Assembly: GCA_017654855.1 (NCBI GenBank)
Contig: CM030335.1
Span: 2,356,001 to 2,420,000 of the forward strand
DNA length: 64,000 bases
From: Podospora anserina
Lineage: Eukaryota
Direction: 5' to 3'
Within the stretch, counting starts at the first letter, position 1, and every line of letters starts with the position of its first letter. Below, piece by piece: positions 1 to 32,279 of this stretch. The notes beneath the pieces are model-generated. The model saw only the letters and a program-made list of their open reading frames with translations, searched no databases and was not told where the DNA came from. Position numbers and translations under genes: made by a program.

Positions 1-2807
1 CATGCTCACGAACCACCTCTTCCGCCTTCCTGTACGCCTCCGTTCCCTGTAGTCCGGGTATCAGGATCAAGTCCTTGCAGAACGCAGGCCATTCCCGCAG
101 CCGGCCAAAGAGCTGCATGAGCGCCTGAAGACCGAACTTGTACATGGGCTCCTCGGGACGATTCTCCTTGACGGCCTGCAAGATCATACCCAAGCCAATT
201 TTGAGGGGGAGTCTCGATATCAACTTGTGAGAGATTATCCCACCGAAGAGCACTGCTGTAGTGGCGAGGGCCTCGAGAGGATAGTCGACATAATGGGCGT
301 ATTCGTCAAACAGACCGTGAATCATGCACGCGAAAATGTCCTGCTCCAGCGGCACACGCGAATGTTTGTAGTGTTCGAGAACCTCGACCACACTGCGAAC
401 CTGCAATTCATCGCCGTACATTTTCTTGTAGTGCTCTTCCATCCTGGTCGTAGCTGCTGGTGCAAGCATATTCCCGCCCCGCCCATTGTCATCGATGATG
501 TCGTCGTAACCTTCCCCATAGTTAATCAGGCGGGGGTAAGCTGTTATGCAGTGTCTCTGAACATTAATCAGATCCACAACAGGGGCTTTCAGGTTGAACC
601 TGTCCAAAATGTCGAGCATCATATAGACTGTTTTGACCTGCAAGGGTGTGTGGGCTTGTCCATTGTCTCCGCTCCGCTGATACGTCTGCTCCAGGTTCGT
701 TTTTATCAACAGAAACTGATTTATGGCCCTGGCCATCTCGCCGGGTCGCTCAGCGTTCTGGCTTGCCCACTGCTCCAAGTTCAGAAAACCTTGCGCATGC
801 GCATAGGCAACGAGATCAAGCCCGAAGCCAGTGGGAAGGAAAACCAGCTCCTGGAGCCACTTGTGCCTCACCGCAAACTCGAAGATGGTTGGCAAGACAA
901 TAGGCTTGAGAGCATGCTGTTCTTCCAGCCGCTGCATGACCCACACCTTGTCCCGTCTCCAGAGGCTTTCCATCACAAAGTCGGAGGTCGGTGTCTTGTT
1001 GATCAGAAACCCCTCGAATAGCGACGCCAGCGTCTCTTCGGCCATTGTGGGCCACGGCTTAGGAACCCCAAAGGCTGAGGTGACAAAGACATGTAGATTA
1101 GGCACAACGACGTCTTGAAACAGGCGCTTCGCCTCTGTGCTCTGTGAGGCATGCATCGAGTGCAGAGCCACATTGAAGACAGCAGACAAAGCAGCCTCGG
1201 AGACCAGTGGGTGTCTAACGGCGAGGGCAGCTATTTCCTGAATTGCCCGGTCGGATTGTACGTATTCGTCCACCGTAAACGTCGGCTTGAGGCCTGGGAT
1301 GGTTGTGGCATCCAGTTGCTCCGGGGTGAGTGAGGCATAGGCGCAAATGAAGGACAGCTGGGTTTCGGGATTCTCCCATTCTCCGCCCCACAGCCGTTGA
1401 ATGTTGAACCTGTCGAGATGCTCGAGCGCGATGGGTAATAATGCATTGTATAACCGCAGAAACTGCGCCGAAGTTACGCGTGCATTCGCATGGTCGAAAT
1501 ACGAAACGACATCCTGCCACTGGAAGCTGTCGGGCAGTATCCGCCTCAGGGCCGCAACGAGAATCGAGGGTTTGTGTGGCGGGGTCTGGCTGATGGTGGT
1601 GTACAGAAGCGCGGCAGATACTTGCTCTTCGGACAGTTGGATGTTGGAAGGTCGGTTCTGGAGGTAGCTCACGCATGTCTCCTCGTCCTTGGTGAAGGCT
1701 GACCCGACACGGTATATGTAGAGGGCCAGTGCATTCGGTGGCCTGTCGGCGAGGAGGCGAATCAGGTCCAGGGCCGCCAGAACCTGAGAGGGGGGCGGCT
1801 TTCCGTCTCCTCCTTGTGAATACCGCATCGACACCTTGTACTCCAACTCCTTCTTGGCGGCAGCATTGAAGTTTGGCGGGTGAAGTTGTATGAATCGGTC
1901 GAGCAGTTCGGCAACGAATTCGGCGGGCATGTCCATGTGTTCCCCAGTCGGTCGACTCAAGATATTCACAAAGGTTGGGTAGTTGGTAGACAAAATGGCA
2001 TCCGCTGCGACAGTGAAACCATGTCAGTAACAGAGGGAGTAGGCACGCTGCGCAAGGGCGTCTTACCTTTGGTCTTCAGGTCAGCCCTGCTACCTAGTTT
2101 GAAGGCCAGGGCCAACAGTGTCTTTTCGAGGGCATCGAGTTGGAAGTGTTCCATAAAAGTCGACAAGTCAAAATTGTGGAATATATCTTCGGTGCCGGTC
2201 TCGATCGACTCGGCGATCTTCCTCGCTTGGCTGAAGTCTCTGGCAAGCAGCTCCATTTCGGCAACGAGGAGTTGCATGTTGTTATTGTTGGAATTCGCTA
2301 CTGGCCGCCCCGCGCCGGGGAAGATCTGAGAGGCATTGGAGGCCACCAGGCGCGTGAAGTATCTCGAATAGACATCCATGCCGTGCTCATGGATAAGCTG
2401 GGGAGAAGCCATAACAGCAGGTTAGCAGTCGGTCAATAGGGTGCAGGAGTAGGTATGGGATATGGCAGTTGACAGTGGGGCAGAAGGGGCAGCGGAGGAC
2501 AGAAGGCTGACAGCGGCATAAAGGGCGATTGGCACCGCACCTTTTGCAAAGCGTCAGTCTGTGACTTCCACCTTCTCGGATCGCCCTTGTCCTCTTTGAT
2601 GGTGCTCAGGAGCAGGAGAACCTGGGCAACTGCAATCTTGGCCAGGGAGCTGGAGCCAGTGGGGCTGCTGGTACTGGGGTTGGCACCCGAACTCAGCGCA
2701 CCGTGATGATGGGAGGGACTCTGCGAGTGGGCGAGGCCAGTGTGGAGGGGCTGGGAGGCAGAATTGGGATTGGGTGTGAAGGTTCCCTTCTTGGAGTGGG
2801 GGACCAT
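1..2807 (-). CDS. NOT1: CCR4-NOT complex scaffold subunit Not1, 5' part (runs off window start). Exons 2807-2541, 2397-2067, 2004-<1
   Basis: N-terminus MVPHSKK...KIAVAQVLLLLSTIKED, then LIHEHGMDVYSRYFTRLV. The last exon is open to position 1 and reads YPLEALATTAVLFGGII...LPLKIGLGMILQAV...MYKFGLQAL, typical of the Not1 HEAT region. GT/AG introns with branch sites keep the frame. Confidence 0.9.
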
Positions 2808-3760: not shown

Positions 3761-4700
3761 CATAGTTTACAGTGTAACATGGGTTAACTTACTTTTGTGA
3801 GTCAACTATTTTGTGGTGAGGGTGTGTGCCCGGTTGAGAAAGGCATTGCATAAAAGTTGCTGACCAATACCCATCCACCTCATCCCTCCTCAATCTCCAT
3901 CTCAAAATGTATGGTCTATTCGGGTTTTATGGCAGACGGCTTCACTCAATATTTGCAACCTGCAAAGTTCCTGTGCTCACCGCATCATACTGTGCTGATA
4001 CCCATCTTTAGTGGGTCCTCCGACTATGCCCCCTGACAGGTCAAGCTTTCTTCCTCGTTTCTTGGTTTCCACAGGACATCCAGTCGTCCAGTCAAGCTTT
4101 CTTTTGTTTTTGCGCCAGTTGATTTGATCAGAATGCTTGTCTTTGGTTCACAATACACAGCACAGCACAGTTATACGCATGATCCTATCCATTTCGCACT
4201 GCCACACGCCGCTATATCCGACCCAGTCTACCATAATTGCGACATGGCTGTTGGTCCAGTGTTGCAGAATAACCCACCTACAGGCGGCTCACGAGCTGCT
4301 TCTTTTGTTCCTAGCGCCGGCTGCATGGTGTGGTACAGCAACCAATGGCATTGCCCTCGCTGCGTAGCAACAATGGCCAGCCAGGCCCAATAGTTAGAAG
4401 CGGGAGATCCCTCGTCTGTTTCGTCCGGCACAGACTTCCAGGCTCGGTCTCGATGTTCATGGATGGCAAGGTCTATTTCAAATATGTAGCGTCGTTGGCC
4501 GTTGTCCCCTCATCAGCCTGCCCGTGCTTGGCGGAGCCCTTGGCAGGCTTTTAATCACTTCTCGCTTCTCCCATGCTCTTGTTCTTTTCATCTTTCTGGT
4601 GATCCATGGTTTAGTGACTTTCACCACCCCAACTGGACGCTGGACCAGCTCCCTTTCGCGTCTTGAGCCCATCTCGGCATCTTTCAGGGTCCACAGAGCG

Positions 4701-7700
4701 ATGGACGGAAACACTGGTGCAAACAACCCCACAGACAAGGCTGACATCGACAGGGGGGCGGAGAAACGTCAGGAGAAAGACGAGGCCGAAGAGGTCATAG
4801 CCCTTGAAGTGCTACCAACACGGATTCAGTTCAAAGATTCCCTTCCCAGTCGGTCTTCCAGAGAGTTTACGGAACGCGGCCGAAGCATCAGCAAAGGACG
4901 CAGCCCCAGCCCGCCCCGTATCAACCTTGGCGCTGGATTTGCAGAGTATAGGGGTGATGTGGGCGGCCATGGCTACGATGAGACCGAGGTAGATATCATT
5001 GCCGTTCCCTGTCCTGGGGCGGATCCGATCCAGACATGGATCTACGACAGCGATTCCAGCAGTGCCGAATCCAACTATCATGTCGAGGTTGGATCGCACA
5101 TCACCCGCAGCAACCAGAGCACCCGCAGCTCCCAGAGTTCTCTTCGCAGGTCAAGCCCATGGGTCACTTTGAGGCTGCGGGAGCGCGTCAACATTGCTCG
5201 GGTATTCTTGTATAGGCACCGGCATCTTGAGGAGGGAATGAATTTGAAGTCGTTGGCGAATGATCTCCTTGAGCAAGTGCAGGACATTCGCAAGGGCTCT
5301 GTAAGTGCATGCATCTTTCTGTCTCGTTTCTGCCGTGTGTGTATTTCCCAAAAATCAGATGCTGATTATGAATATCTCATAGTCTCGGCCCCTGTTTTTC
5401 ATTGCGCATAGCATTGGCGGGCTGGTCGTCAAGAGTGCCTTGGTGAGAGCTAGCCAGAAAACAAAGTACCAGGATATAATGGACGACTGTCATGGTGTCA
5501 CGTTCTTTGGTAGGCTTCTTGTGATGATGTTGATATTGTGACGTTTGGTAAAACCAGGCTGACAAAGCAACAGGAACACCACATCGCGGCTCAAGCTACA
5601 TGTCGATGCCCAACCTCAAGGACTCTATTCAAGACCTTCTCCAGCTTGAATCGCCACTCCCCAGGTCCCTTACAGATGAAATCCTCGTCAATAATCCGAA
5701 GCTAAAACAGCTGCACGAGCAATTCGTGGACATTGCCAGCGAGCTCCGTCTTTGGTCCTTCTACGAGACTCGGGAGTGTTTGCTTTCCGGATCTGGTGCC
5801 CAGTTCACAAACGAAGTACAGTTTACTGCCCCTTTGGTTTCGGTGAAATCTGCTATACTCGAAATCTGGCAAGAAGATATCTTTGGCGTCGAAAGTGACC
5901 ACGCGCATCTCGCCGCTTTTGGTCCCGATAATGAGGAGATTTTGCATTCATATCTTGGGGACTTGGCAGGCGCCGTCCTGAAAGCGGCAGAGCTTAGCCG
6001 GGATCATGTTCACCACCCACTATACCTCAAGAGCCATGTCCAAGTCGAAGTCATTGGGTTCTATGAGGATCCAGATGGCTGGATGGCTGCCACACAGCAG
6101 TATGCTGGTCAAGGGTCGGACGCGAGTGCCGAATCGGGCTCTATCATACGCTTGTATGCCACCAAATACCCCTACAAGGACTTCTTGAAGAAAGGCCCAG
6201 AGAAGTGCCTGTCTGAACGGTTACATGATCGATCGCAAAGGAAGAGGAGAAGAGTACGAAGCCCGAATCGGGCTGGCGGGCGGACAGACTTGCGGCCACC
6301 TCAGTTGCCTCAGGAAACTACAGCTGATGCCAACGTCCTCGGTATCACGCAGGGCCAGCTCGATGTTGGACATCAGGCTGGTGCTGGGATCGGCCCAGAA
6401 ATCATCATCAGTGGAGGTTCACCTGTCGCTCTCGAAAGACCGGCTCTGTTGAGGGTTCCAGCTCAAACTATGCCTGAGCTACGGCCTCCAAGCCCCGAGA
6501 GCTTGGCCAGTGTATCAACCACGGCGTCGGACCCGTTGTTCATTCAAGGGAAGGACTTTGCAGGAGATGGGCCCTTGACCGTGGATTTGCTGGCCAGGCA
6601 ACAAGCAGAAATTATGCTCAAGGAGCATGAACTCGGGGCGTCTGCTGGCTTTTCCCGGCCGAATCCCCAACTCAAAAAGTTCACGTGGATTCATATGCCT
6701 TTCAACAACCCGGTCTGGGTTAAGGAGATCTTTAATGTTCTTTCCGACATTCAAGGGCACGATTTTTCCAAGCTTTTTGACTATGACAACTGGCAATCGA
6801 AGCACATTCAGAACCGCCATTCCGAATCTCAGCCAGCATTCCTCAAACCAACTTGCAAGTACCTGACCAATACAGGCATAACCTCGCCACGCCCTACCCC
6901 TCTTGTTGGACCATCTTCATCGTTCTTGACACCGAACTGCCTGTTTGTCTACATGCCATACCTTCATTTTGACACCTACCGAAGCATGATCAGGCGCCGG
7001 AAGATCATCAGAGAGCGTCGGGAGCGTGGCAGGGCGAAACCTGTTCCGAAGCATGTGGCTGATGAGGACTCCCTTGAGCTCAAGATGATCTGGGAGTACA
7101 TTGGCTTCGATCCTCCTCTCAACTGTCGTAGGACCTTGGACCAGTTCGGCCACCATTCCCTCAGAGACACCAACTCCCGCGATGATGACCAAATGCTGTA
7201 CAAGCTCACCAAAAAGGATGCCTTCTCCCTGACGAAACAGCTCAATGGTGTTGCCACCAAGTCCCAGGTTGGGCCGGTTGGAAGCTCGATGTATTCAAAC
7301 AAAGGTTCCAATGGGAGCAACGCCGGCTCCCACAATGACGACGATGAATACGAGGAAGAAACCGAGGCCGAGCTTCGAGACGGTTACGTACTGATGGTTG
7401 ACCAGCTCTGGCTCTGGTCCATTGACAAGACCACCCTCACCACCTTCTTCCCTCGCCGGTACTCGACCCCAACAGAGGGCACCCTGTTTCACCAGGCCGA
7501 CCTACGGAACAGCGTATACAACGAGCTCAACGGTGACCTCACCGGCCGTACCGAAAACGCTCTCGACCTGGCTGCTTTGATAGTCTACCACGCTGTCATC
7601 GTCTTCCTCGACCGTTCCACCCACCCAGACCTGGAGATCTTCCGTCTCTTTGACGAAGCCATTGGCATGTTGGCCGAAAGGATGACGCTTAATATGAAAC

Positions 7701-8685
7701 AATTCCGGCTCCAATCTCTCAGCATGGACGATGACGAAGACGACGAGGACACCGACTACTCTGACTGGGAAGGGGAGAGCCCAGCCTCGATCAAAAAACG
7801 GCACAGAAAAGAGCTTGAAAGGTCCGAGAGGGAAAACAGAGAGAACACGTCTGCTCTACTCGAACTGGCAGATCTCAAGGATGAATTAACGGTACTGCAG
7901 ACCCTGTTTAAGAACCAGGAGTCAACCGTCAAGCAAATGAAGGATTTCTACGAGATCCATTGCAAGGAGACAAGGAAGAATTGGCAGGAGCCGCTGGATG
8001 ATGCGTTGGAGTATTTGGACGATTTTAAGGGGACGGTGAATGAGATGATTGAAAGGGTTAATACGACGAGGAATGATGTGAGTTCTCCCCTACTCAAACA
8101 CCGTGACCAAACAGTAAGCTGACGGATAATGTGAAGTATGAAAAAATGCTCGAAATGGTCCAACGCCAAGCCCAAGTCGACGAGGTCCGCTGGTCACGCC
8201 TCCAAGCCGAGCTCGCCTCGTCCCAAAACCTCTCGGTCATGATCTTCACCACCTTCACCGTCATCTTCCTCCCGCTCACCTTTTTTACCGGACTATTCGG
8301 TATGAACGTTACCAACTGGCAAGAAGAACACATGCCCGACCTCGAGCAAGTCGGCTGGATCTCCCTGCCTACCTCGATCCTCCTAATCATTTTTTCGCTG
8401 GTTGCAGCATTCAGCTGGAGAGTCCAGAGAGGGTTCAAGGGGATATACAAGATTATAAGGGGGGGCTATAAGAAGGTTAAAAAGGGGTATACCCAGAAGC
8501 TGGAGCCGATGTGGAGGAAGGAGAAGAAACGGAGGAGGAGACAGGAGAAGAAGAGGAAATATGTGGAGAAGCAAACCGCGTGGGATAAGGATGGGATGTA
8601 TGATTTTTGGGACAAGGTGAAGGAGAATCAGAGGAAGATTAGGTATCAGATTCCGGAGCAGAATAGGAGGACGTTGAGGGGGTGA
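4701..8685 (+). CDS. ~1259-aa fusion: N-terminal SesB/SERAC1-like alpha/beta-hydrolase plus C-terminal fungal CorA-like membrane domain. Exons 4701-5300, 5383-5509, 5574-8077, 8137-8685
   Basis: Spliced length 3780 nt is in frame. Hydrolase motifs: DIIAVPCPG, RPLFFIAHSIGGLVVKSAL, GVTFFGTPHRGS, WSFYET, DHAHLAAF. CorA-like motifs: YMPYLHF, RRTLDQ, VDQLWLW, TVIFLPLTFFTGLFGMN, then a second TM helix and a basic tail. Confidence 0.85.
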
Positions 8686-8762: not shown

Positions 8763-9160
8763 TGTCACGAATATGATGTGGACACCCGCAAAGAACAACC
8801 AATAGGGAAGAGGAGGCACGGCAGCCAATTAAGAGAAAGGAGGATGGACCAGTAAGAGGTGGATCATCCGGGACATGAAGGAATCATGAGCGATTCCCAG
8901 GAATCACTCATGATCCTTAGGAGTCGGTCATGATCCGGGGAGAAACAGAATGATCCAGGCTTGGCATTAGGTCTATATATACGGAGGAACTAGATAGCTT
9001 GCAGATAGTTCCGCAGTATGCAATTCACAGTTGTATTCACGGCATCTTGTGTTTACATCGAGACATCTTGTTGTGCACTGTTTAGCTGCACCGAACCAAT
9101 TGTCAGAAGTTACCTTCAACCAGTATCCCTTTCAGAGGTTCTGTACAGGGGTTCGTCACA
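8763..9160. mobile_element. Probable solo LTR (~398 bp)
   Basis: TG...CA ends with 8/9 inverted termini (TGTCACGAA ... TTCGTCACA), a TATATATA box near 8974 and an internal 15-bp hairpin at 8883-8914. No clean target-site duplication seen. Confidence 0.6.
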
Positions 9161-9354
9161 TGTTGTGGTTGTTTTGTGTGTTTTCTCACCATTTCAATAG
9201 ACTTCTATCCTCTAGGTACCTCCGTACCTGGCTCACCTCTGCCAAGATGTGAGCGCCCCATTGTCCTGCAGCTCCGCCGTTACATTTCACTTGATTGGCC
9301 ACCACGGCCTGCTGCAGTTCCCACTCTGCTTTGCTATATGGTTAGTCTGTGACA
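9161..9354. mobile_element. Possible second short or partial LTR abutting the first
   Basis: Starts TGTTG and ends TGTGACA (TGTCACA on the minus strand, an LTR-type terminus). Lies between the first LTR and the AT-rich relic. Confidence 0.35.
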
Positions 9355-9860
9355 CATTAGGATAATAAGGCTTTACTAGCTTAGCATTTTAAGAGATTTC
9401 TAATTATTTATATAGTTAAACATTATAAAAAGAAAAAAATAGAAAAAAAGAGATTTATTAAAAACAAAACAAAAAATAATTATTAGTTAAATTTTAATTG
9501 AAGTTATTGGAGCGTCGATTTAAAGAAGAAGGGAATTATATTACGTTTTTAAATACAAACTTCTGGTAATATCGGCTAATTAGAAAGAAAAACGGAATAA
9601 TTAATTAAAGAGATAAGAAATAAGCTTATTAAAAGAAAATTGTTAAGTTAAAAATATAATTTAGGAAAAAGATTATTAGATTATTATAATAATCTAACGA
9701 TCTAGCTTTAGGAAATATTAGGGAAAGATAATAATTTAAGAGAGTAATGGTTTATATATATAGAAAAATGTTTCGTAATATATAATATAAATTTTCTTTG
9801 TTAGTATTAAAAACTATTATAAATAAGATAACCTATTATTGTGCACTGATTAGCTACTAT
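9355..9860. mobile_element. AT-rich, RIP-mutated transposon relic
   Basis: Abrupt drop in GC with TpA excess and CpA/TpG depletion against a ~50% GC background. No ORFs. Confidence 0.7.
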
Positions 9861-10619
9861 TAAACCATTGTCTAAAAGTACCTTTAACTGAGTATCACTT
9901 TCAGAGGATCCAGATCAGAGTTCGTCATACTTAATGAACCATTTAGCCGCACGCTTTTATCCACATGTTGAAGTAAATAATATATCCTTTGTAGAGTCGC
10001 CCCTCCTCGCAGCCATACTACATGATCGGCAGATTAGTTCTCAGGTGGGTGGCCACTTGGGAACCCCTGCTGTTGTATGTTTTTGCTTTTCAGCTTTTTG
10101 ACCTGGCCGTCAAATGCCCTCAATTCCCATGTGCGGCTTTCCTCGGCAGAGCGGGGTTAGGGCGGGTCCCTTACCCCACGAAAATGATGCCCCACCCTGT
10201 TTTCAAATGTCAGAGGCTTGAGTGGCTGCACCTCGGGCGGGACGTCATTTGAACGGCTGCTTTCTTGGCCGAAAAATGAAATCGGAGCCGGCCCTCGAGA
10301 CGAAGTGGAGAGTGGAGTGAGTGCTGGAACAAGACAAGCGGGTTGAATTGTGTGTGAGAGGAAGCCGGAGTGACCAAGTGCGATTCTTTTCTCCTCCCCT
10401 GACTGTGCAATCCTTTCCCTCGTCTTTTCTGCTGCTGTCTTGTTTGTTTCTTGTTTGCCCGCGGCTGTGGAATTTTTCTTGGGGAAACTGACTGAAAGAA
10501 CGCCGTATGTGGTCATAGACCTATACTCTCTCGGCCGAAATTGTTCCCTTTGTCCCCCCGCTTCGACGACCGAGACAGACACTGTATTTGAATAGGATAG
10601 ACCAAAAGACACAGTCATC

Positions 10620-12566
10620 ATGTCGGCCTCTTCAAGACTCACCTCGACCCTCTACCGGCGGGCAGCCGCAACTGCAACCCCCCCCTCTCTCACAGCTACC
10701 TCGACGACAAGGGTACAGACACCACAGCTCGCGCGCGGGATTAGGGGCATATCATCCACAACCCCCAGCAGGTTACGACCTACCACCCTCTCCCGCTCAA
10801 CCTATCCCCTCCAAAGGACAGCCGCCACCCTCCCTACGCTCCCCTCAACCCGTCTATACTTTTCCACCTCCGCAGAAGAAGACTCCTTCGACCCAGCCTC
10901 CATCGACCGCGAATCCGACGAAGTAGACGTCTGTATCATCGGCGGCGGCCCCGCAGGCCTCTCCGCCGCAATCCGCCTCAAGCAACTAGCCAACGCCGCC
11001 GGCAACGACGACTTCCGCGTCCTCCTCCTCGAAAAAGCCGGCGAGATCGGCGCCCACATCCTCTCCGGAGCCGTCATCCAACCCACCGCCATTGACGAGC
11101 TCATCCCCGATTGGCTTTCCGAAGACAATGAAAACCGCTTCACCGGCGCCACACCCGCGGGGAAGGACTCGATGAGCTTCCTGACCAAAAAATGGGCCAT
11201 CCCCTGCCCTACTCCGCCTCAGATGCATAACGACGGGAATTACATCGTTTCCCTTAACGAATTCACCAAGTGGCTAGGGGAGCGGGCGGAGGAGGTCGGG
11301 GTAGAGGTTTATCCCGGTTTTGCGGCTAGCGAGGTTCTTTACAAGGCTGATGGGTCGGTCAAGGGTGTCGCGACGAATGATCTGGGGATTGGGAGGAATG
11401 GGAAGCCAAAGGATAGTTTTGAGAGGGGGATGGAGTTTCATGCTAGGGTTACGCTTTTTGGGGAGGGGTGTCATGGGTCGTTGACCAAGCAGGTGATTAA
11501 GAAGTTTGATTTGAGGTCCGAGTCGCAGCCGCAGACTTATGGGCTGGGGATTAAGGAGGTGTGGGAGGTGAAGCCGGAGAAGTTTGAGAAGGGGAAAATT
11601 GTGCATAGTATGGGGTATCCGCTGCCGATGGATACGTATGGGGGTGCGTGGATGTATCATTTTGGGGATAATCTTGTTTCGGTTGGGCAGGTGGTTGCGT
11701 TGGATTATAACAACCCGTGGCTGTCGCCGTATGGGGAGTTTCAGAAGCTGAAGCAGCACCCGCTTTACAGGAGTGTGCTGGAGGGGGGGAAGTGTATCTC
11801 TTATGGTGCTAGGGCGTTGGTGGAGGGGGGGTTTCAGTCGATTCCCAAGGTGGCTTTTCCGGGAGGGGCGCTGATTGGGGATACGGCTGGGTTTGTTAAC
11901 GTGCCCAAGGTGAAGGGGACGCATAATGCCATGAAGAGCGGTATGTTGGCTGCCGAAGCGGCGTGGAACGCGCTGCAGGTTCCGGATAACAACTCCATTT
12001 TCCTCTATGACTACGAGGATGCCCTGAGGAAGTCGAGCATCTGGAAGGAGCTGAAAGAAGTGAGGAACATGCGCCCTAGTTTTCATTCTCCTCTGGGAAT
12101 CTACGGCGGGATTCTGTATTCCGGCCTCGAGGCGTTTGTTCTGAAGGGACGTGTCCCCTGGACGCTGAAGCACAAGACGCAGGACCACGCCGCGACCAAG
12201 GACGCGAAGGACTGCAGCAAGATTGAGTACCCCAAGCCCGACGGGGAGATTACGTTTGACATCTTGACCAGTGTGAGCAGGACGGGGACGAACCATGAGG
12301 AGGACCAGCCAGTGCATCTGCAGGTCAAGGACTGGGAGAAGCACACGAGGGAGACGTGGCCGAGGTGGAAGGGGTTGGAGAATAGGTTCTGCCCGGCGGG
12401 GGTGTACGAGTATGTGGAGGATGAGGGGAAGGAGGAGGGGGTGAGGTTTCAGATCAATGCGCAGAATTGCATTCACTGCAAGACCTGTGATATTAAGGCG
12501 CCGAGGCAGGATATTAATTGGCAGGTGCCGCAGGGGGGGGAGGGGCCGAAGTACTATATGACTTAG
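10620..12566 (+). CDS. CIR2: Mitochondrial electron transfer flavoprotein-ubiquinone oxidoreductase (ETF-QO, Cir2/ETFDH orthologue), intronless
   Basis: Arg/Ser/Thr-rich presequence, FAD motif DVCIIGGGPAGLSAAIRL, GAHILSGA, and C-terminal 4Fe-4S motifs FCPAGVYE and NCIHCKTCDIK. Confidence 0.97.
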   Translation: MSASSRLTSTLYRRAAATATPPSLTATSTTRVQTPQLARGIRGISSTTPSRLRPTTLSRSTYPLQRTAATLPTLPSTRLYFSTSAEEDSFDPASIDRESDEVDVCIIGGGPAGLSAAIRLKQLANAAGNDDFRVLLLEKAGEIGAHILSGAVIQPTAIDELIPDWLSEDNENRFTGATPAGKDSMSFLTKKWAIPCPTPPQMHNDGNYIVSLNEFTKWLGERAEEVGVEVYPGFAASEVLYKADGSVKGVATNDLGIGRNGKPKDSFERGMEFHARVTLFGEGCHGSLTKQVIKKFDLRSESQPQTYGLGIKEVWEVKPEKFEKGKIVHSMGYPLPMDTYGGAWMYHFGDNLVSVGQVVALDYNNPWLSPYGEFQKLKQHPLYRSVLEGGKCISYGARALVEGGFQSIPKVAFPGGALIGDTAGFVNVPKVKGTHNAMKSGMLAAEAAWNALQVPDNNSIFLYDYEDALRKSSIWKELKEVRNMRPSFHSPLGIYGGILYSGLEAFVLKGRVPWTLKHKTQDHAATKDAKDCSKIEYPKPDGEITFDILTSVSRTGTNHEEDQPVHLQVKDWEKHTRETWPRWKGLENRFCPAGVYEYVEDEGKEEGVRFQINAQNCIHCKTCDIKAPRQDINWQVPQGGEGPKYYMT

Positions 12567-12860
12567 GGGTTGCTCTTGGGGTTGAGAGGAGGGGCTGAGG
12601 GGAGGGGTGCGAGGGGGAAGGGAGGAGGTCTGTTACTTGAATATAAAAAGGTTATATCTAGACTGAAGGGTTGGAATGATGTATTATATGTTTTTTTTCA
12701 TTGGCGGGTATGGCCTTTACAAAAGCTTTTTTTTTTTTGGGTCATTAGTGTTTTTTGGGGGTTGGTGTATGCTGATAGGTGTTGATCAAGTGAAGGATAG
12801 AAGAAACTGAATACATTTCAACATGTAACAACTGTGAACGTGGATAGGTAGGTAAATAAG

Positions 12861-13167
12861 AGAGAACCTTTAGGGGGCCCCCTATTTGCCTTATCAGCGC
12901 CCGCCCCCCTCCCTATCCACCGATTTATTTACCCTTCCTATACTATAATAAGAGACCTTTTCCCTATCTTTTAAGACCCTTGAACTATCCTTTAAGCCTT
13001 GTGAATCGTTTTCTCAAGCCTTTTAACTATCCTTTAACGTCCTTTAACTATCTTTTAAAGCCTATTAAATATCTTTTAACCCTTAATAATCACCCTTTGA
13101 AATATAGTCAATTCTATATCAAGGGGGGGTGTTTGCAAGATAAACAGGGGGCTCCGTAAGGTTCTCT
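12861..13167. mobile_element. MITE-like element (~307 bp) with imperfect ~30-bp TIRs and internal ~21-bp tandem subrepeats
   Basis: Left end AGAGAACCTTTAGGGGGCCCCCTATTTGCCTT versus right-end reverse complement AGAGAACCTTACGGAGCCCCCTGTTTATCTT. Flanks GGTAAATAA / TGCAAATAA match 7/9, a possible decayed 9-bp TSD. Confidence 0.65.
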
Positions 13168-13793
13168 TGCAAATAAACTCGTCAACCAGAAGAGGGCTGA
13201 AGTGAAATGTTCCGTTTCAATCACCACGCTCAAGTCACAGGTTGCGGAATGAGATAGTGCGTGCGTGTATGTGTAAACAATTTTGCTCTCTGCTAAAATG
13301 TCTTTCGTATCAAGAGAAAAGATGAAAAAGTAATTTGGTATCCACGAGTTGAAAAGAAAAAACTACTTTCAAATAGCAAAAAGAAAACATTGCCATAAGA
13401 GCTTCTCCAACTAAGAGAGAGAAAGAGAGAAATAGAGCATATACCAAAAATCTTGTATAATCAACAGATCCAAAAGCGACAGTTGAGAGTTGTCTTTGAC
13501 CCCCCCCCCCTTTCCTTCCCGCCGACTTGTCCCATATCCTCCCCATAAATGTCCATGATATCCTTTATATACTTGTCCCAGATATCCACCACGGAATTTC
13601 CCCGATATAAAACGCCATCAACCCAACCCAAACCAACCCAACCGCCTTGGTGGGAAAGAAAATGCCGTTTTTTGATGCCGATATAAAAGTACAAAAAACG
13701 ACAGTTGAAATAATAAACCGCCATTAGGCCACAATGCCTCATGAAAACGATAGGGGGTGCCCCGTCCGCCAAAAATATCCAAAGCCGACTTGT

Positions 13794-16419
13794 TTAGGTG
13801 ACAAACCACATACACCCACAAGGACTCATATCCGCAGCCGGCGGTCCTCCTCCCTGCTGAGTAAAAACCCCCTCCTCCGTCCCGCCGCCCTCACGCCCCG
13901 CTCGCTCCTCTCCCTCCCTCTTCCTCCTCCTCTTCTGCCCCCCCGGCCGGCCGGCGCCGCCAAAAGGCCCAACAACAGTCTGCTCATTCTCCACAATCCT
14001 AATAGTCACCGCCTTCCCCTTCCCGTCCACCACCACCTTCGCCTCTTGCGCATAACCCGTAATCTCCATCTGGGTGCACTCCGGCACTCTCGCCGCCGCC
14101 GTCCCTGTGGTTATGGTTGGAACTCTCCTCTCTGCTAGTTTGATAACTCTTGGATACCCCGGTGGTGGCGGCGTAAAATTCTCATCTATCGGTCCCCATC
14201 CTGACCCTGACCCGAACCCCCCTGTTGATGTGGGAAAGGGGGGGAACTCAAGCGTCTTCGAGTCTCGTGGTTCAGGCCAGTAACCCTTTGGTTTGTTGGT
14301 GTTTGTTGGGGAGGGGCCTTCGCTTGGTGGTGGTGGTGGTGATTGGTTTCCCTCAGGGGCAGGAGGATGGTTGTTGGGATTCTCACCGCCGATGGGGGCT
14401 GGTAGTGTTGATGTCTGTGGTGGTGGGGTTTCACCTGGCGGTGATGTCTGTGTCAGTAGTGTGGCGGAAGATGATTCGAAAAATGTTGATGTTGTTGTCG
14501 AGGTGAGAAAGGACTGATATGGCCCCCGCCCTGGACTTCCCGGGCCACCGCCCGGGCCCCCTGCTGACAGTGGCGGGATCCCAGACCAGCTTGAGTTTTG
14601 GTGGGGATAGATGAACATCTCGAGGTACGTGTCTGGCCATCTGCACACCCACGGCTTGTCCCCGACCTTGGCGATATTTTTGCGCTTAAAGTCGGTCATG
14701 CCGGCCAGGTTGCGAATGTTTCTTCTTGTCACAGAAGGAGTCGTCGGTGAGAGGGCAGCTTCGGGGAGAATGACCGTCTTGTCGTAGGTCAGCATGTTGT
14801 AGAATGCCGGGCCCCGTGTTGGCTCAAAGGTGTCGTTGACCAGTGTCAGAGTAACCGGTTTTTCTACCAGAGGTGGCTGTTCACCATACGAGTATACGTT
14901 ATTCATCAACGTGAACGAATGGTTAAAGTTGAGCATCATGCTGTGTTCGCCGTGATTCTCAGCTATTGTTAGATGCAAGCCGGCGATGACGAGAAAACAG
15001 TTCCATGCTTGCGAGAGAGTCGGGTCTTGAAAGCAAGTATTGGACACGCGGTTCGTTGTAAGTGGCATGCTGAAGGTGCCCGCCGGTAGTGGCTGAAGAT
15101 CGGCTGGTTTTGGTATTGGAACGGCACCAAACGTTGGTACAGGGGCTGGCGAGTTGAATGGTGACCTATAGACCGAGTTAACAAACCAAACCACGATTAC
15201 TCACATCTTGTTGAGATGCTCACCATGTGCCATCCTTGCGCATTGGCCGCTTTTGTTTGGACAAGAATGTGCCGATAACTGAGCCCAAAATTGCTCCCAC
15301 CACCAATAATATCAGAAACGTCAGGCATATAACCCAATATGGGACGATACCACATAGCTTCCGCCTCATCCACAGTTTCCACCCCTTTGGCGATTGCCCC
15401 TTTTCGTTGACAACCTCTTCATACGGCTTAATGACCCGATTGGTGCTGTCCGAGGTGAAACTTCGCGACGAGTGGCGGGACTGGGGAGACCCGAGATCGT
15501 CTGTTGAATCAAATTCGGGATTTCGTGTGGCTAGCCCAAGCCCTCCCGCACCGACAATGGTGGAACCGGACGTTGTGATGGATGGTGGTGCGGTTACCGC
15601 GGCTGCCGCTGTATTTGGCGTATTCGTCGTTGCTTGTGCTACTCCAGTTGGGGTCAAGGCATCGGCAGCCGCTACCTTGCGAGCATATGCCTCATCCGGA
15701 TATCGCGTGTATGGCGGAAGCTGTTCGGTATGGCCGTCTGGGCCGATGATGTCGCCAGCTTCCTCCCCGTCTGCGCCAACTCGTCGCCGGTACTGATCGG
15801 GAAGACCGTGAAAACCTAGTGGAACGGTGTCTGGCATAGCGCCCGTTTCGACCCCGTCGCTCTGAGGATAGAGGCCATACGGATGACTTGGTCCACGAGG
15901 CCCAGTGTACGACAATTCCGACGCCGGTAGCGTCGACGAGGTCGTCGTTGTGCTCATTGTCCTTGCCATCCTTACGTCCTGCGGATACATCTGGTAGGGA
16001 TGCGATGGTCCAGACGGTCCCCTGTACGGGCTCTCGGGTGCTAGATAGGCTGTGGATTCGGTAGATCCGCTCAATTGCCTGCTCAAACTCGAGGATTCGT
16101 CAGCCTGTTCTGGCCCCCCATGTTGCCGTGTCGACGATGCATCTCGTGGCCTGGGTGGCTTCGAGATGCTGGGAGAGCGACCTATTCGTGCTGACTCTGG
16201 ACTTCCATCGCCAAGTAGTGTGCTGGATCCGGAGGCGAGTGATGGCGTCGATGGTGGTTGGATCTCGGGGCCGGGGTTGACTGGTCTGAACCCATCTGCC
16301 ACCATTCCCATGGCGGCCAACTCTGGGTCCTCATCCGCACTAATGACTGATATCCGCAGCGAATTCCTCGTCGATAACCTCCTCTCCAGCTCGTCAGTCT
16401 TGTTTGGTGGAAGATCCAT
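13794..16419 (-). CDS. Single-pass membrane protein of unknown function with a Pro/Ser-rich cytosolic N-terminus and a Cys-containing C-terminal domain. Exons 16419-15224, 15165-13794
   Basis: A 58-nt GT..AG intron joins the 399-aa and 466-aa ORFs in frame (..DGTW|SPF..). Contains IIGPDGHTEQLPPYTRYP, a TM helix after RKLCGIVP, DKPWVCRWPDTYLE and terminal CGCMWF. Confidence 0.8.
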
Positions 16420-19400
16420 GGTTTCGGGTTCTGTATCTCGATGACTGGCGCTGTTCCGGGTCTAAGAGTTAGATGAACCGCTTGCCAGCACCATCAACTA
16501 TTCATTGACTGGCGAGGGTGACCAGCGGAGTCATCGACTCCTTTGGTTCTCGGATCGTCCTAGGATGTGGCGTTCAAGGTTTGTAGACAGAGGTGATGTT
16601 GGTTGTTTGATAGTTGCAAGGGTGATTGGCAGGTGAGGTTCCAGTCCTCCGGCTGAAATGGGACAAGCTGGATCAGAGGTGCGCTTCTGCAGCAAGAGGT
16701 CCAGCCACTTCTTGGTCAACAGCCGGAATCACAGCGCGCAAGAATCCAAAGGTTGTCGGACTGGCCAGAAACAAGACAGACTGGCACCGTTTCGGACTCA
16801 ATATGGGGGGCACGTAGGCGCATGTTGTCATTGGTCGGCTGTTCACGGGGGACATGCCCTGGCACCCCCCCAGGGCCTTCCGGGGCGGATTTGCGCTGGC
16901 GGGAGCATCAAGGCGCTTGGCAAGCTGCTGTGTGCGGCAGGGATGTGCAGAGTGGACCATGGCCATTGGCTGGGACTTTGGATCTCGCCCGTTCCTCATC
17001 ACTTCATCGGACAAACCAAGGAACCTCACGGTCCGGCAGTGTCTGGCTGCAGCTATAACAAGCGTCCTGGCAGAGCCGTTTTCGTCTCGAGTGCCCAAGC
17101 AAAAACCGGTCGTCGGACGAACTCGAGCGAACTCTCAGTTCGTCTGGAGCATCCAAAAGGCCAAAGCTTGCCGCTTTCCCGAAGACAGTCATCCAATTCC
17201 TGATGTCAGTCCTGGGTATCATCATCCCATCCATTCCTGGGACTGACTGGTCATGTCAGTGAATAACCGCCGTTTTCGCAAGAGAAATGGAAAAAATCTG
17301 GGGTAGACATTGCAATCTACAGGCCGCAGAGAGGGCAATATCTCGCAGCATCGGGATTCGCCTGGATGATTTGAGCCTGTGGGTAGTATTCCCAAGCTGG
17401 ACGCAACACCGGACAGTGTGGGACAAGCGAGGCGGCTGGTCAGATTTGTGCTATGGCGAAATGAAGTGTGAAGGAAACGTTTGGCATTGCGCAAAGCCAC
17501 GAGAAGAGATCAGGAGAGATGACATCGTGAGCTTGTTCCTGGCTGTCCATGCCCAATGGGGAGGCCACTCCGGATCCGAGACGATGCTAATGTTAGGAGC
17601 TAGGTACCTGTGTACGCAGTAGTTCGTGCTGCCGGAGCGGAGCATCTGATGCAGAGCGTTCGTTCGGTTGATATGCGCAGGCCGCAGGAGAGAAGGCAGG
17701 AGGTGGCAGGTGGCTGCTATAATTAAATGGGGGGGGGGAAAGGTCTGGAGCGTTCTCTTGTAAATAAACGGAGAGACATCCAGACGGGAAGGTCAATTAT
17801 CAACGTTGGAAGCTTGCCTCTTTGCGGCCAAGCTCGATCGTGTGGTAGTGTGGGCTTGCCGGGCCGTTGCACGGTTATGGCACAGAGCCCGCGGCAGTTA
17901 CCACTCCCCTGTCGGCTGGCAGGGGTGCCACGATTGCCGGTTGCTTCTAGTGTCTTGTCCCCGCCAACAGCATCAGATATTGCATCTTGACAGCCAGTAT
18001 ATTGTTGATATTTGAAGACTACCCTCATGAGAGAGCAGTGGCGGCCATGGAGGGAGAGTCTCATTAGCATTGATCGGTCATCACGACAATCTCGACAAAC
18101 TACCGCCCTCAATTGCGAATCGTTCTACACTACACAGTAGTTTGTTATTCCACGACCAGCGGAAATGCGGGGTATTCGGATTCAAAACAGCCTTGGATGT
18201 TAACCGCACAATTTTATCGCCGGGTTCTCATCCCCGAGTCATCGTGACACGGGATGGCCTCGATCTCTGGGACGGTGCTGGCCTTGGTCTGACAGCCTTA
18301 TCAACAATCCCGACCTTCATCCCCTCTACGAGTGTCAAAATCGAACCATTCTGTCTTGCTGCATCTGCTGTACTTCGTCCACATCTCGGGCGAATGCAGG
18401 AGCTCTCTACGAAACACATCGTCGTGGTACAGTTGTTTAAAAAGGCAGATGGCAGAATCTCTGATCAAGGAAGCGAGGCCCTGGGCCCGCCAGGTCCATT
18501 GAGGGCAATTATGGCCGAGAGGATCATCTGCACCCTTCCGACTCTGTGTCCAGAACTGGCATTGGATGGTTGGTGGTTGTCAGCAACCCATCTTGCCCCG
18601 CTCCCGTCGTTGGATACGCCCGGCTTTGCACCATCACCATAACCTCAACCAAAGCATCACTCTTAACCTCTTAGCCTGTGTCTGGTGCGGCTCAAAATTG
18701 GTCAACATGTTTGCTGGCTTCTAATAAGAGGAGAGGCTCCGAGAGGCTCCTTGATGCCCAAAGTGCTCTCCTCTACTTTCGAAACCGAACACAACATGAC
18801 CTGACCCTCACTCTCCTGCCCCTCACGACCTCGCCCAAGCTGACTGAGGTGGGAGAAGCAAGTTCGACGGATAGCCGCAGCCTGACCGCCAAGCTGTGAT
18901 GCAGTGTGAACACCAACCACAGCACTCTATGCCCACACCCAGCCTGTCACAACACTTCGCCTGCAAACCGGGGCACCCGCCTGCTGGAATCCAACATGCA
19001 CGAGACACACCGAGCATGCCGCTCTACAGATGAATCGCCACTTCATCGTTGCCCGGCTTGTGCGCCAGCTGTAGCTTTCCGATCTGCCACAGCCTATCAC
19101 AGCTGGACGACTCTGAGGCTCCATGGCTTTGGGACAGATCAGACCAGTCGGATCCGGCCTCCCACAGGGTTGGTTACCTGTTGGTCCAGCGCTGAGTAGC
19201 TCAGCATCCTCCCACCTGGGCCCTGTTTCTATGTGTGAGACCATGCACTTCTGCAGCCTCGAGCACACGCTTTGCCCAACTCAGCTGCAGGAGAGACTCC
19301 AAGAGAGAGGAATGTGCAGCATCACCTCGTATGTGAGTGTCACCCATAGTCTCCTTCTCACCCCTAGACACGCGCCTATGCTCTCGGGGGAGTAAGCTCC

Positions 19401-30260: not shown

Positions 30261-31606
30261 CTACAACTTTGACTTGTCTCCCCCTTCCTTCTTGGGCTTC
30301 CTTACCGGCCGTCCCCCCATCCACCCCTCAAACTCCTCACTAATCACCCACTTTTCCTCGTCTCTCTTCTTGGCCCACCGCTTAAACTCTTCCTGCTCCC
30401 TCCTCCAGTGCTCGAGGTCCTCGACGAGGAAGTCAGCGGCGTAGGTGGCGACCTCGGTCGTCCTCTCCATTGGGACAAGGTGGCCGTACCCCTCGATGGT
30501 AACAGCTTTCACCCTTCCGTTCTTCGCGCCTCCAGAACCGCCCGGACCGACGCCGGTCAGGTCGAGCTTCTCCTGCCGGACGTCGGGCGGGTTGACGTTT
30601 GACTCTGAGCCGAAAATCCAGATGCAGCCCGGCCGGAGGTGGGGGAGCTTGTTCGCCGTTGCTGGGCCGCCTTCGGGGCGGTAGAAGGGGAAGTCGGGGT
30701 TTTCATGCACGACTTCGTCTGCGTCGGGGATGAGATCCCAGTCAAGTTCGTGTTTACCCCCTCCCATCAACTTCTGACGGATGGGGCGGTAGTAGGTGAA
30801 ACTCTCCATGTGTTTGGTTGTCAACAGTGTGACTGAGCCAGCAGGGGCGTCGGGGTAGATTCTTGTGGGGGTTGGTCGGAGGCCGTGTTCGAGCCAGGAG
30901 TTGAACACGCGGGGGTCCCAAGTGCGGTAGAAGGGGTTGGATTGGAAGGCTGATTTGGCGGCGGCGAGGGAGGGCCAGATGTCGCGGCGGAAGGCGGAGG
31001 CTTTCATGGGGGCGAAGCCGTATTTAGGGCCTTTGGATTGGAACCTGGAGAGGACCGGGTCCAAAAGGATGAGGGAGGAGAGGAGGCGGGGGTGGAGGAG
31101 GGAGAGGTTGACTATGATGTTTGCGCCGAAGGAGTGCCCGACACCGATGAGGGGGCGGGGGAGGGAGTGGCGGAAGTGATTGGTCAGGTGGAGGAGGTCG
31201 CGGGTGTGGTCTATCCACGAGGCTATGCGATTGTTAGCACCATGAACAGTGGATTGGGTGGAGGTGTGGGCATACGGTCGTTGCCTAGGTTGGCTTCGTT
31301 GAGGATGCCGGATTGGCCTTGGTGAGTTACGTCTGCTATCCAGATGCCGCGGATTTGGACGCCGCGGCTGTTGAGGAGGGATAGGAGGTCTTCCCAGAGG
31401 GGCTCGTAGAGTTCTTTGGGGAAGCCATTTGCGTGGGCGGCGATGATGGAGACGTCGCCGGGGGAGGGGGTGAGGTTGTTGAGGGGGATGTATTGTTTCA
31501 CGGCGAGGAGGAGGGGTTCTTCTTGGGAGTGGGCGGTGGCGTGGGGGTATTCGCGGATGTGTTGGGATTCGATGGTGTGGTTCTTGATCAGGAATGAAGA
31601 GGCCAT
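30261..31606 (-). CDS. Peroxisomal alpha/beta-hydrolase (Lpx1/MpaH-like). Exons 31606-31276, 31222-30261
   Basis: AHANGFPKELYEPLW, nucleophile elbow GVGHSFGA, GHLVPME, and C-terminal PTS1 SKL. A 53-nt intron joins the two ORFs in frame. Confidence 0.88.
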
Positions 31607-32205
31607 TTTGGCGGTTGGCTGGGTTGGAAGTGAACAATGAGAAGAAGTGAAGGGTGAGTTTGTGAGATGTGAGGTTGCATATGTAAGTCAAGGATCAGTT
31701 TACCCGTTCAGTTTAGTTCGGTTATGTGGCTTGGTCAAGGTGGACGGCAGTCTACGCGAGTGAGAGAGGGTGGTTTTATGTACTGGTTGGCAGTCGTAAA
31801 ATCACAAGAGAGATTCAATTGAGATATGATTCCATCGACACGCGAATTCCGTATCTCTCTCTCATATGAAGCTCATGTGAGGTTGAGATGCATCAATGCA
31901 AGGCAGGCTGTTATAGGTGCCGGCCAACAGTGAGGTTCGCTTGGGGAGACCCCAGATGGGAAAGTGCCGAGGCATGCAACGCCCCGCGGGAAAACCAAGA
32001 CCCACGGCCGCTTCCCCGGATTTGAATTCCGTTCGGCAACGGGACCGGGGCCGGAAAACGGGCCTAAAGGACTTGACTTGTGAAGCCGATGGGTTTGCTT
32101 TGTCAGTTGGAAGTGTTTTGTTCCTCAAAGTTTTGAGAGCAGTGCACAGCAAGGATAGCGCAGACTTGAATTGAAAAGCCGTCGTTGGTCTCCAACGAAT
32201 TATGA

Positions 32206-32279
32206 GGTTCCGTGGTGTAGTTGGTTATCACGTCAGTCTAACACACTGAAGGTCTCCAGTTCGAGCCTGGACGGAATCA
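32206..32279 (+). tRNA. tRNA-Val(AAC), intronless
   Basis: Acceptor stem GGTTCCG/CGGAATC, D-arm with TGGTGTAGTTGG, anticodon arm TCAGT-CT-AAC-AC-ACTGA, T-loop GTTCGAGCC, downstream T-runs. Confidence 0.97.

Follow-up and report, generated by a model that had tools for sequence, protein, structure and literature searches.

The question raised by this locus is whether a lipase-like enzyme and a CorA-family channel are made as one polypeptide and, if so, what such a protein is for. The locus lies at positions 4,701 to 8,685 of a 64,000-nucleotide stretch of the Podospora anserina genome (GenBank assembly GCA_017654855.1, contig CM030335.1, positions 2,356,001 to 2,420,000 of the forward strand; hereafter the window). 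The original prediction, made from the letters and their open reading frames (ORFs), proposed that four exons join a SesB-like hydrolase to a CorA-like membrane domain in a single-chain enzyme-plus-channel module, a candidate for signalling or defence. The analysis reported here supports the first part of this proposal, as one gene encodes a hydrolase followed by what is predicted to be a full CorA protomer, but it does not support the module as a defence system.

Four exons encode one polypeptide

Exon borders were placed by reading the DNA directly, and all introns are of the GT..AG type (Table 1). The joined coding sequence of 3780 nt encodes 1259 residues, and its only stop codon is the terminal one. 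The stop-to-stop ORF list contains three long forward frames (4398-5411, 5552-8122 and 8107-8685) and a short forward frame (5383-5541) that holds the AHSIGG motif. When the exons were searched individually against Pfam, only exon 2 (DUF676, 24.3 bits) and exon 4 (CorA) gave matches, which is why the pieces look unrelated in the ORF track; in NCBIfam, exon 4 matched CorA and ZntB, both below threshold. The 1259-residue product is identical end to end to P0005, a protein of a public collection (source 'lgn', 4 contigs, the longest of 4643 nt) and the top match of a homologue search with exon 3 (834 aa). As introns 1 and 2 shift the frame, P0005 cannot be read from unspliced genomic DNA; it most likely derives from spliced RNA, and these frame-shifting introns point to a single spliced transcript. 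M1 is identical in all 26 aligned orthologues.

The predicted layout was therefore recovered: three introns are removed to give the one frame of ~1259 residues, and the named motifs stand where they had been placed, starting at aa 208 (AHSIGG), 243 (GTPHRGS), 305 (FYET), 351 (DHAH) and 1132 (GMN). An additional GMN at aa 179 is a chance occurrence. The reported absence of a P-loop was confirmed, with no Walker A motif (G....GK[ST]) in the 1259-residue protein.

Evidence for a SesB/DUF676-type hydrolase in the N-terminal half

Pfam PF05057 (DUF676) matches P0005 at aa 184-254 with 29.5 bits (curated cut-off, 20.3). The nucleophile-elbow pattern (G/A)-x-S-x-G is present as AHSIGG, together with a conserved acid and histidine (E307 and H352). 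In an alignment of 26 orthologues (A1), the residues S210, T244-P245-H246, G248, S250, E307-T308 and H352 are invariant. In an 81-row alignment of the wider family, the acid column is Glu in 77 of the 77 covered rows (4 gaps) and the base column His in 78 of 78 (3 gaps); the nucleophile column holds Ser in 64 rows and a gap in 9, the remainder showing Gly (6 rows), Asn (1) or Pro (1). The alignments show the predicted triad of Ser210, Glu307 and His352 to be retained under purifying selection.

Structure models were made, with alignments, from two family members, P0059 and P0182, and the fold evidence is therefore that of homologues. The model of P0059 (1193 aa, 50% identical to P0005) has an overall predicted local distance difference test score (pLDDT) of 57.1 and a predicted template-modelling score (pTM) of 0.44, with a confident hydrolase core (pLDDT about 80-92). 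Foldseek comparison of this model with the PDB returned lipases and phospholipases at E values of 2.5e-4 to 1e-2, including Legionella PlaB (6zth, E 2.5e-4), LipC12, Burkholderia lipases and the human monoglyceride lipase MGLL, the TM-scores being low because the query was the entire 1193-aa model. A PDB sequence search with the window protein and the family profile gave no match for the hydrolase part. Taken together, the profile match, the conserved residues and the homologue's fold support the assignment of the N-terminal domain as a SesB/DUF676-type alpha/beta hydrolase with an intact candidate triad. As a separate observation, the PADLOC model DUF626_VIII matches aa 181-302 (about 5241-5752 in the DNA) with an E value of 6e-8.

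The C-terminal half resembles a complete CorA protomer

Pfam PF01544 (CorA) matches P0005 at aa 987-1168 with 56.1 bits (curated cut-off, 27), and by hydropathy two hydrophobic segments begin at about aa 1108 and 1148. The PDB sequence search matched Thermotoga maritima CorA over the stalk and the region of the first transmembrane helix (TM1) and GMN only (E ~0.01-0.03), in an alignment that is nearly without gaps (IFLPLTFFTGLFGMN versus IFMPLTFIAGIYGMN). The Foldseek list for P0059 was filled by hydrolase matches, and the CorA half was therefore modelled separately from P0182, a 760-aa family fragment that covers the linker and the CorA half, is 31% identical to P0005 and is matched at 4e-108 by a hidden Markov model (HMM) built from the window's clade. 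The P0182 model, obtained with the 81-row alignment, has a pLDDT of 76.5 and a pTM of 0.70, and the Foldseek matches listed for it are CorA channels throughout, including the cytoplasmic-domain-only entries 8zah (Campylobacter jejuni) and 5n77 (Escherichia coli). Because the cytoplasmic-only entries are among these matches, the C-terminal ~650 residues extend beyond a GMN hairpin: by the homologue model, this half is a complete CorA protomer, with cytoplasmic domain, stalk, TM1-GMN-TM2 and basic tail. Pfam, hydropathy and the homologue model thus agree with the predicted CorA-like domain with two TM helices and a GMN signature.

Among the 26 orthologues, G1132 and N1134 are invariant and the M of GMN is present in at least 90%. 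Much of the stalk and TM1, as far as G1132 and N1134, is also invariant. In the cytoplasmic domain the invariant residues are dense and include R761-R762-T763-L764-D765-Q766, R778-D779-D780-D781-Q782, D852 and W855-L856-W857; the domain also bears a variable insert (aa 791-842) and an acidic stretch (aa 956-985).

The two conserved ends are joined by a variable tether. Mean identity to the window protein, calculated among 25 orthologues, is 30% for the N-terminus, 56% for the hydrolase, 60% and 76% for the two halves of the CorA cytoplasmic domain, 20% for its insert, 61% for the stalk, 68% for TM1-GMN-TM2 and 38% for the basic tail. The module that follows the hydrolase (aa 366-465) has no Pfam match, and its counterpart in the P0059 model consists of helices and a beta-hairpin. 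The segment beyond it, described beforehand as a long disordered linker, is probably disordered indeed: its identity is low, it is rich in P, S, G, T, Q and N, and its counterpart in the P0059 model has a pLDDT below 50. From these values, both the hydrolase and the CorA ends are under purifying selection, with a variable tether between them.

The fusion is conserved across four classes of Pezizomycotina

The exon 3 search listed 120 proteins, and the same fusion was found in more than 100 Sordariomycetes. Among the 120 listed homologues, 107 are at least 1000 aa long, and all 107 carry PF01544. The PF05057 label is present in 69 of these 107 (hand count of a precomputed column). Three aligned rows without it, apparently 'CorA-only' (P0042, P0120 and P0122), retain the hydrolase motifs, so that lack of the label is a threshold effect. 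Identity decreases with distance, from 91% in Apiosordaria backusii and 78% in Triangularia to about 60% in Chaetomiaceae, about 45% in Xylariales and Diaporthales and 37-39% in Hypocreales. An exhaustive phmmer search of exon 3 against 1.84 billion representatives gave 1043 matches at E <= 1e-3, of which 155 were at E <= 1e-30.

HMMs of our own for three parts (hydrolase, CorA cytoplasmic domain and TM region) were run on the 47 listed representatives of at least 700 aa. The hydrolase was found in 42 of the 47. All three parts were present in that order in 29, while 13 had the hydrolase and the cytoplasmic domain and ended before the TM region, which marks these 13 as fragments. The five representatives without a hydrolase were considered as natural CorA-only forms and rejected as such: P0182, the only one whose N-terminus was read, begins mid-sequence without a Met and is probably a fragment. 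Pfam searches of 30 long representatives (E <= 1e-4) found CorA, DUF676 and DUF7379 and no other domain, with one of the 30 lacking any match; there is thus no sign, in this set, of the suspected swapping of N-terminal domains on this CorA clade.

Three deviating models were also observed. P0129 (2138 aa) has about 975 extra residues N-terminal of the hydrolase, without a Pfam match there at E <= 1e-4; it may be an additional fusion or the product of merging two gene models. Mergers with a neighbouring gene are the probable origin of the other two, P0295 (Penicillium bovifimosum) and P0302 (Aspergillus niger, 1550 aa), which add or are named after the mitochondrial carrier domain PF00153.

Searches from two deep members extended the family to Dothideomycetes (Lindgomyces, Clohesyomyces, Lepidopterella, Lentithecium and Lineolata), Eurotiomycetes (many Aspergillus and Penicillium species, and Pyrenula) and Lecanoromycetes (Agyrium, Xylographa and Lecanora). 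Labelled trees were built from 48 named rows, 33 unnamed rows being excluded. In these trees each class forms one side of a branch, with Shimodaira-Hasegawa-like approximate likelihood-ratio test support of 100 for Sordariomycetes, 99-100 for Dothideomycetes and 70-89 for Eurotiomycetes. The four class labels need 3 changes on the tree, which is the minimum, compared with a mean of 18.7 for shuffled labels, and a FastTree of all 81 rows agrees with the 48-row trees. Among the listed homologues there is one copy per named species, the sole exception being Coniochaeta sp. 2T2.1, which occurs twice. Judged from these trees and counts, the gene is an old orthologue, inherited vertically in four classes of Pezizomycotina. 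Two peptide patterns, an approach of low sensitivity, were also searched for in the genomes of bacteria and archaea; they gave 340 pattern matches and no relative.

Active site and pore vary within the family

Both the elbow and the pore signature are intact in Sordariomycetes, the window's class: GMN is present in 25 of the 26 named Sordariomycete rows of alignment A3 (P0005 included), Echria having GVN. In the 81 family rows the pore motif is GMN in 53, GIN in 20, GVN in 4, SMN in 2 and GME in 1, with one gap, and the non-GMN forms are almost all outside Sordariomycetes.

Some Aspergillus rows of alignment A3 (for example P0283, P0287 and P0140), those of A. avenaceus, A. minisclerotigenes and a near-copy, have Gly at the nucleophile position (CHGTGG) together with GVN at the pore, while most of the remaining Aspergillus and Penicillium rows retain Ser and have GIN in place of GMN. 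This pattern suggests altered ion selectivity or lost catalysis in Eurotiomycetes. Residues invariant across all four classes were also observed in the CorA cytoplasmic domain (RRTLDQ, RDDDQ and VDQLW; aa ~755-860, within 6647-8077 of the DNA), clustering outside the pore and outside the hydrolase; this cluster may be a metal or ligand site.

Relation to known enzymes, receptors and channels

The layout of T. maritima CorA and its relatives (PF01544) recurs in the window protein: the alpha/beta cytoplasmic domain leads into a long stalk helix, followed by TM1-GMN-TM2 with PLTF..G..GMN and a C-terminus that is basic. In contrast to these channels, its cytoplasmic domain is about twice as long, with the variable insert and the acidic stretch, and is preceded by ~600 residues comprising the serine hydrolase, the conserved module and the tether; sequence similarity to solved CorA proteins is limited to the stalk and TM region (E ~0.01).

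By BLASTP (27% identity, E 8e-16) the hydrolase matches the N-terminus of a NOD-like receptor (NLR), namely residues 21-222 of the Cladorrhinum protein P0307. This receptor is 2055 aa long and carries DUF676, NPHP3_N (NACHT-type) and ankyrin repeats. The order of motifs is the same in SesB-like/DUF676 N-terminal domains of NLRs (VDIIAVPG, ARVLLY, HSxGGLVV, FFGxPxxGS and FYE). According to passages of PMC9815663, the SesB-like class is represented in the NLR literature by the profiles DUF676, PGAP1 and Abhydrolase_6, and in the supplement part of PMC12258605 sesB and DUF676 are annotated on the same NLR segments. The 'SesB-like' label of the original prediction is fair on two counts, the BLASTP match to an NLR N-terminus and the DUF676 profile shared with the SesB-like class. 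Its statement that this type of hydrolase is a common N-terminal effector of fungal NLRs also stands, as excerpts of PMC4986451 and PMC12258605 place SesB-like among the most frequent fungal NLR N-terminal domains; in the relevant passage of PMC9815663, such domains are tied 'more indirectly' to regulated cell death. However, the window hydrolase precedes a CorA channel whereas that of the NLRs precedes NACHT/NB-ARC and repeats, and the window gene is conserved, once per named species, whereas theirs are expanded and variable. Pfam and motif searches of the window protein found neither a central NACHT/NB-ARC domain nor a Walker A motif, and Pfam at E <= 1 found no C-terminal ANK, TPR, WD40 or HEAT repeats. 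As leads only, an Atlas feature search with the hydrolase part returned as neighbours ascomycete DUF676 clusters, an arthropod 'Protein SERAC1' cluster and a 'DUF676/Sigma domain on NACHT-NTPases' cluster, all with scores of 0.87-0.90.

The other precedent that had been invoked, CorA proteins as effectors of type III CRISPR systems, holds as well (sections of PMC10600005). There, according to the same sections, the membrane domain is paired, and sometimes fused, with a hydrolytic enzyme (NrN, DEDD or a lyase), and a small ligand is bound by the soluble N-terminal domain, whose fold is described as a 'unique fold' (PMC10600005). The likeness is that of a CorA-family membrane domain combined with an enzyme partner. 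The CRISPR proteins, unlike the window protein, are prokaryotic, encoded in cas operons and provided with that unique N-terminal fold, and their partner is a phosphodiesterase or a lyase, not an alpha/beta hydrolase. None of the CorA models of PADLOC matched the window protein, the hydrolase region giving the only match, and in place of a cas context the locus is eukaryotic with housekeeping neighbours.

A fungal paralogue, P0306 (Remersonia thermophila, 1535 aa), combines ankyrin repeats with a CorA-like half that is homologous over window aa 608-1135 (23% identity, E 2e-33). It shares with the window protein this half and a hydrolase-like N-terminal remnant; it differs by its ankyrin repeats and by having lost both signatures that the window protein keeps, the elbow being degenerate (GRGFGA) and FGMN being replaced by FFALEI. 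An ascomycete Atlas cluster of such ankyrin-bearing CorA-like proteins, named 'Ankyrin repeat protein family', has 949 members. SERAC1, PGAP1 and the yeast DUF676 lipases belong to the same broad DUF676/PGAP1 hydrolase family, and 'Protein SERAC1' occurs as a label among the homologues listed; we know of none of these lipases that is fused to a channel.

Genomic neighbourhood

The genes that surround the locus (Table 1) are housekeeping genes. Besides those tabulated, the window encodes BCS1, HMG-CoA synthase, homoserine dehydrogenase, a Trm8-type methyltransferase, a GNAT protein, a PXA-RGS-PX sorting nexin and a DEAD-box helicase. The ORFs scanned (at least 150 aa up to 20 kb and at least 220 aa beyond) revealed no gene of the NLR, HET or HeLo kind. 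AT-rich intergenic islands were observed at 9001-10500, 12501-13500 and 46501-48000 (GC 0.26-0.42, compared with 0.526 overall); they bear no signature of repeat-induced point mutation, the indices being near 1.

Table 1. Coordinates of the fusion gene, its parts and its neighbours, numbered from the first letter of the window
Feature	Position	Strand	Remarks
Exon 1	4701..5300	+	aa 1-200: ATG, acidic low-complexity N-terminus (aa 1-91), first hydrolase strands
Intron 1	5301..5382	+	82 nt, GTAAGT..TAG, CTGAT branch-like site
Exon 2	5383..5509	+	aa 201-243, last codon split; nucleophile elbow AHSIGG
Intron 2	5510..5573	+	64 nt, GTAGGC..CAG, CTGAC branch-like site, phase 1
Exon 3	5574..8077	+	aa 243-1077: remaining hydrolase, linker, CorA cytoplasmic domain, most of stalk
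Intron 3	8078..8136	+	59 nt, GTGAGT..AAG, CTGAC branch-like site
Exon 4	8137..8685	+	aa 1078-1259 and stop: stalk end, TM1, GMN, TM2, basic tail
DUF676/SesB-type alpha/beta-hydrolase domain	4974..5941	+	aa ~92-365, spans introns 1 and 2; Pfam, fold matches, BLASTP
Ser210 codon	5410..5412	+	predicted nucleophile; invariant in 26 orthologues
Glu307 codon (FYET)	5765..5767	+	candidate catalytic acid, role proposed from conservation alone
His352 codon (SDHAH)	5900..5902	+	candidate catalytic base
Post-hydrolase module	5942..6241	+	aa 366-465 (VEVIGFYEDPD...KGPEKCL); 56% mean identity
Variable linker	6242..6646	+	aa 466-600 (~135 aa), 28% mean identity, 41% P/S/G/T/Q/N
CorA-type cytoplasmic domain and stalk helix	6647..8220	+	aa 601-1105, spans intron 3
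TM1	8230..8298	+	aa 1109-1131, pore-lining helix, CorA signature PLTFFTGLF
GMN motif	8299..8307	+	aa 1132-1134
TM2	8353..8418	+	aa 1150-1171; hydropathy, helix in homologue model
Basic C-terminal tail	8422..8682	+	aa 1173-1259, 36% K+R, conserved YDFW patch
CNOT1	2-2023	-	flanking gene
ETF-ubiquinone oxidoreductase (ETF-QO)	10596-12566	+	flanking gene
DUF7820 protein	13794-15200	-	flanking gene; E 7e-79
413-codon open frame	15220-16461	-	no Pfam match; follows DUF7820 gene
Abhydrolase_6 gene	30261-31694	-	E 1.4e-7; second alpha/beta hydrolase, unrelated
tRNA-Val(AAC) gene	32206-32279	+	
5S rRNA gene, dispersed	44298-44417	-	94.6 bits

Discussion

CorA is the textbook Mg2+ channel, regulated by its own cytoplasmic domain: five identical subunits, each with both termini in the cytoplasm, make up the channel, and the pore closes when the cytoplasmic funnel binds Mg2+. 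The reading that we favour for the fusion, and to which we would give an even chance, is that both halves are active and that the protein is a conserved bifunctional membrane protein with a housekeeping role across Pezizomycotina. By analogy with CorA, its C-terminal half would form a pentameric pore for divalent cations of the Mg2+ type, with N- and C-termini in the cytosol, and five esterase or lipase heads would be tethered to the cytoplasmic funnel, beside the membrane. Our best guess is that the hydrolase would cleave an ester bond of a membrane lipid, or of an acylated molecule, at that same membrane. Metal-dependent opening and closing of the funnel might set the reach or the activity of the tethered heads; alternatively, the heads, or a product or substrate of the enzyme, might modulate the funnel. 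Either way, the outcome would be a housekeeping function in which Mg2+-type cation homeostasis is linked to local lipid or ester turnover. The coupling, the substrate, the ion and the location of the fusion protein are, in this reading, inferred.

Several observations weigh against this reading. The whole-protein model of P0059 (pTM 0.44) shows no confident packing of the hydrolase against the CorA half, which leaves the coupling of the halves without direct support, and the CorA fold evidence is drawn from family members. Among the 72 covered rows the nucleophile has given way to Gly (6 rows), Asn (1) or Pro (1), and the pore motif takes forms other than GMN (GIN, GVN, SMN or GME) in part of the 81 rows; as both vary among the family rows, neither catalysis nor strict Mg2+ selectivity is family-wide. 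Finally, in Fusarium graminearum all 86 putative lipase genes have been deleted, four DUF676 genes included, and the relevant passage states that 'most mutants had no defects'; the deleted set may include the orthologue (PMC10269793).

A first alternative is that the protein is a membrane-tethered lipase only, the CorA half being a pentamerising anchor that conducts no ions in vivo. The ankyrin-CorA-like paralogue P0306, which keeps the scaffold and has lost GMN, shows that fungi can maintain this fold after the pore signature is gone, and GMN varies in the other classes. However, few parts are as well conserved as TM1 and GMN (68% mean identity, with G1132 and N1134 invariant), and the signature PL(T/S)FF(T)G(L)FGMN is kept in the window's clade, which would be unexpected for a mere anchor. 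We therefore hold this alternative to be unlikely, if the least so of the rivals. A little more doubtful is the converse possibility, a plain Mg2+ transporter with a non-catalytic regulatory head whose hydrolase fold binds a ligand or a partner. The loss of the nucleophile in 8 of 72 covered rows, with His and Glu retained, and the degenerate elbow of P0306 would fit such a head. Alignment A1 would not: Ser210, Glu307, His352 and the TPHxGS block are invariant among its 26 orthologues, and catalysis is the simplest reason for keeping the three residues together.

A role in cell death or defence, in which the hydrolase would sense, make or destroy a lipid or ester signal and thereby open the pore and depolarise the membrane, was part of the original prediction, and we consider it improbable. 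It draws on the analogy with CRISPR-associated CorA, which is opened by SAM-AMP (S-adenosylmethionine-AMP), and on the homology (E 8e-16) between the hydrolase and the SesB-like domain at the N-terminus of an NLR, SesB-like being among the commonest NLR effector domains (excerpts of PMC4986451 and PMC12258605) and 'more indirectly' linked to regulated cell death (passage of PMC9815663); the family-wide invariants of the CorA cytoplasmic domain, moreover, lie where a ligand would bind. Against this, the protein has no nucleotide-binding domain, repeats or amyloid motif, PADLOC detected no CorA defence model and only a weak hydrolase match, and the canonical GMN suggests selective conduction rather than membrane rupture. 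The gene is furthermore the conserved orthologue that the original prediction had itself named among the findings that would speak against it: it is vertically inherited in four classes, with a tree that follows the classes, it is found once per named species with a single exception, and its neighbours are housekeeping genes. These features are not those of an NLR-like variable defence gene.

To be judged just as improbable is a self-contained second-messenger or lipid-gated channel, in which an ester-linked small molecule or lipid, made or destroyed by the hydrolase, would bind the invariant RRTLDQ/RDDDQ/VDQLW surface of the CorA cytoplasmic domain and gate the pore. If it were true, the fusion would be the eukaryotic equivalent, in one chain, of the CRISPR CorA-plus-NrN pair, and SesB-like NLR effectors would have been borrowed from, or would share a substrate with, an older housekeeping module, giving a first handle on what these effectors do.

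That two separate genes, one for a hydrolase and one for a CorA protein, were joined in error is hardly credible: a few database entries are broken up or incomplete (P0115, 740 aa, PF05057 only; P0101, 657 aa, PF01544 only), but exon 3 is an unbroken 834-codon frame running from the hydrolase interior through the linker into the CorA domain, the spliced product matches P0005 exactly, 107 of the 120 homologues listed are full length, and the five long representatives without a hydrolase may be fragments, P0182 starting without a Met.

Among the papers covered by full-text searches, none was found that describes or tests a DUF676/SesB-CorA fusion, and in databases the protein goes under names such as 'putative ankyrin repeat protein', 'Protein SERAC1' and 'DUF676 domain-containing protein'. 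It may be described as a subunit of a CorA-family channel to which a SesB/DUF676-type hydrolase is permanently fused, in a combination that seems to be unstudied. The fusion itself is real and ancient, while functional coupling or gating is only what we infer from it. An apparently active serine hydrolase carried on CorA through the history of filamentous ascomycetes would point to an unrecognised link between divalent cations and lipid or ester metabolism or, alternatively, to a ligand-gated use of the CorA scaffold in eukaryotes. As this hydrolase is of the same type as the commonest enzymatic 'effector' domain of fungal NLRs, an orthologue present once per species in tractable models (Neurospora and Podospora relatives) may be an easier place to find the substrate of SesB-like enzymes.

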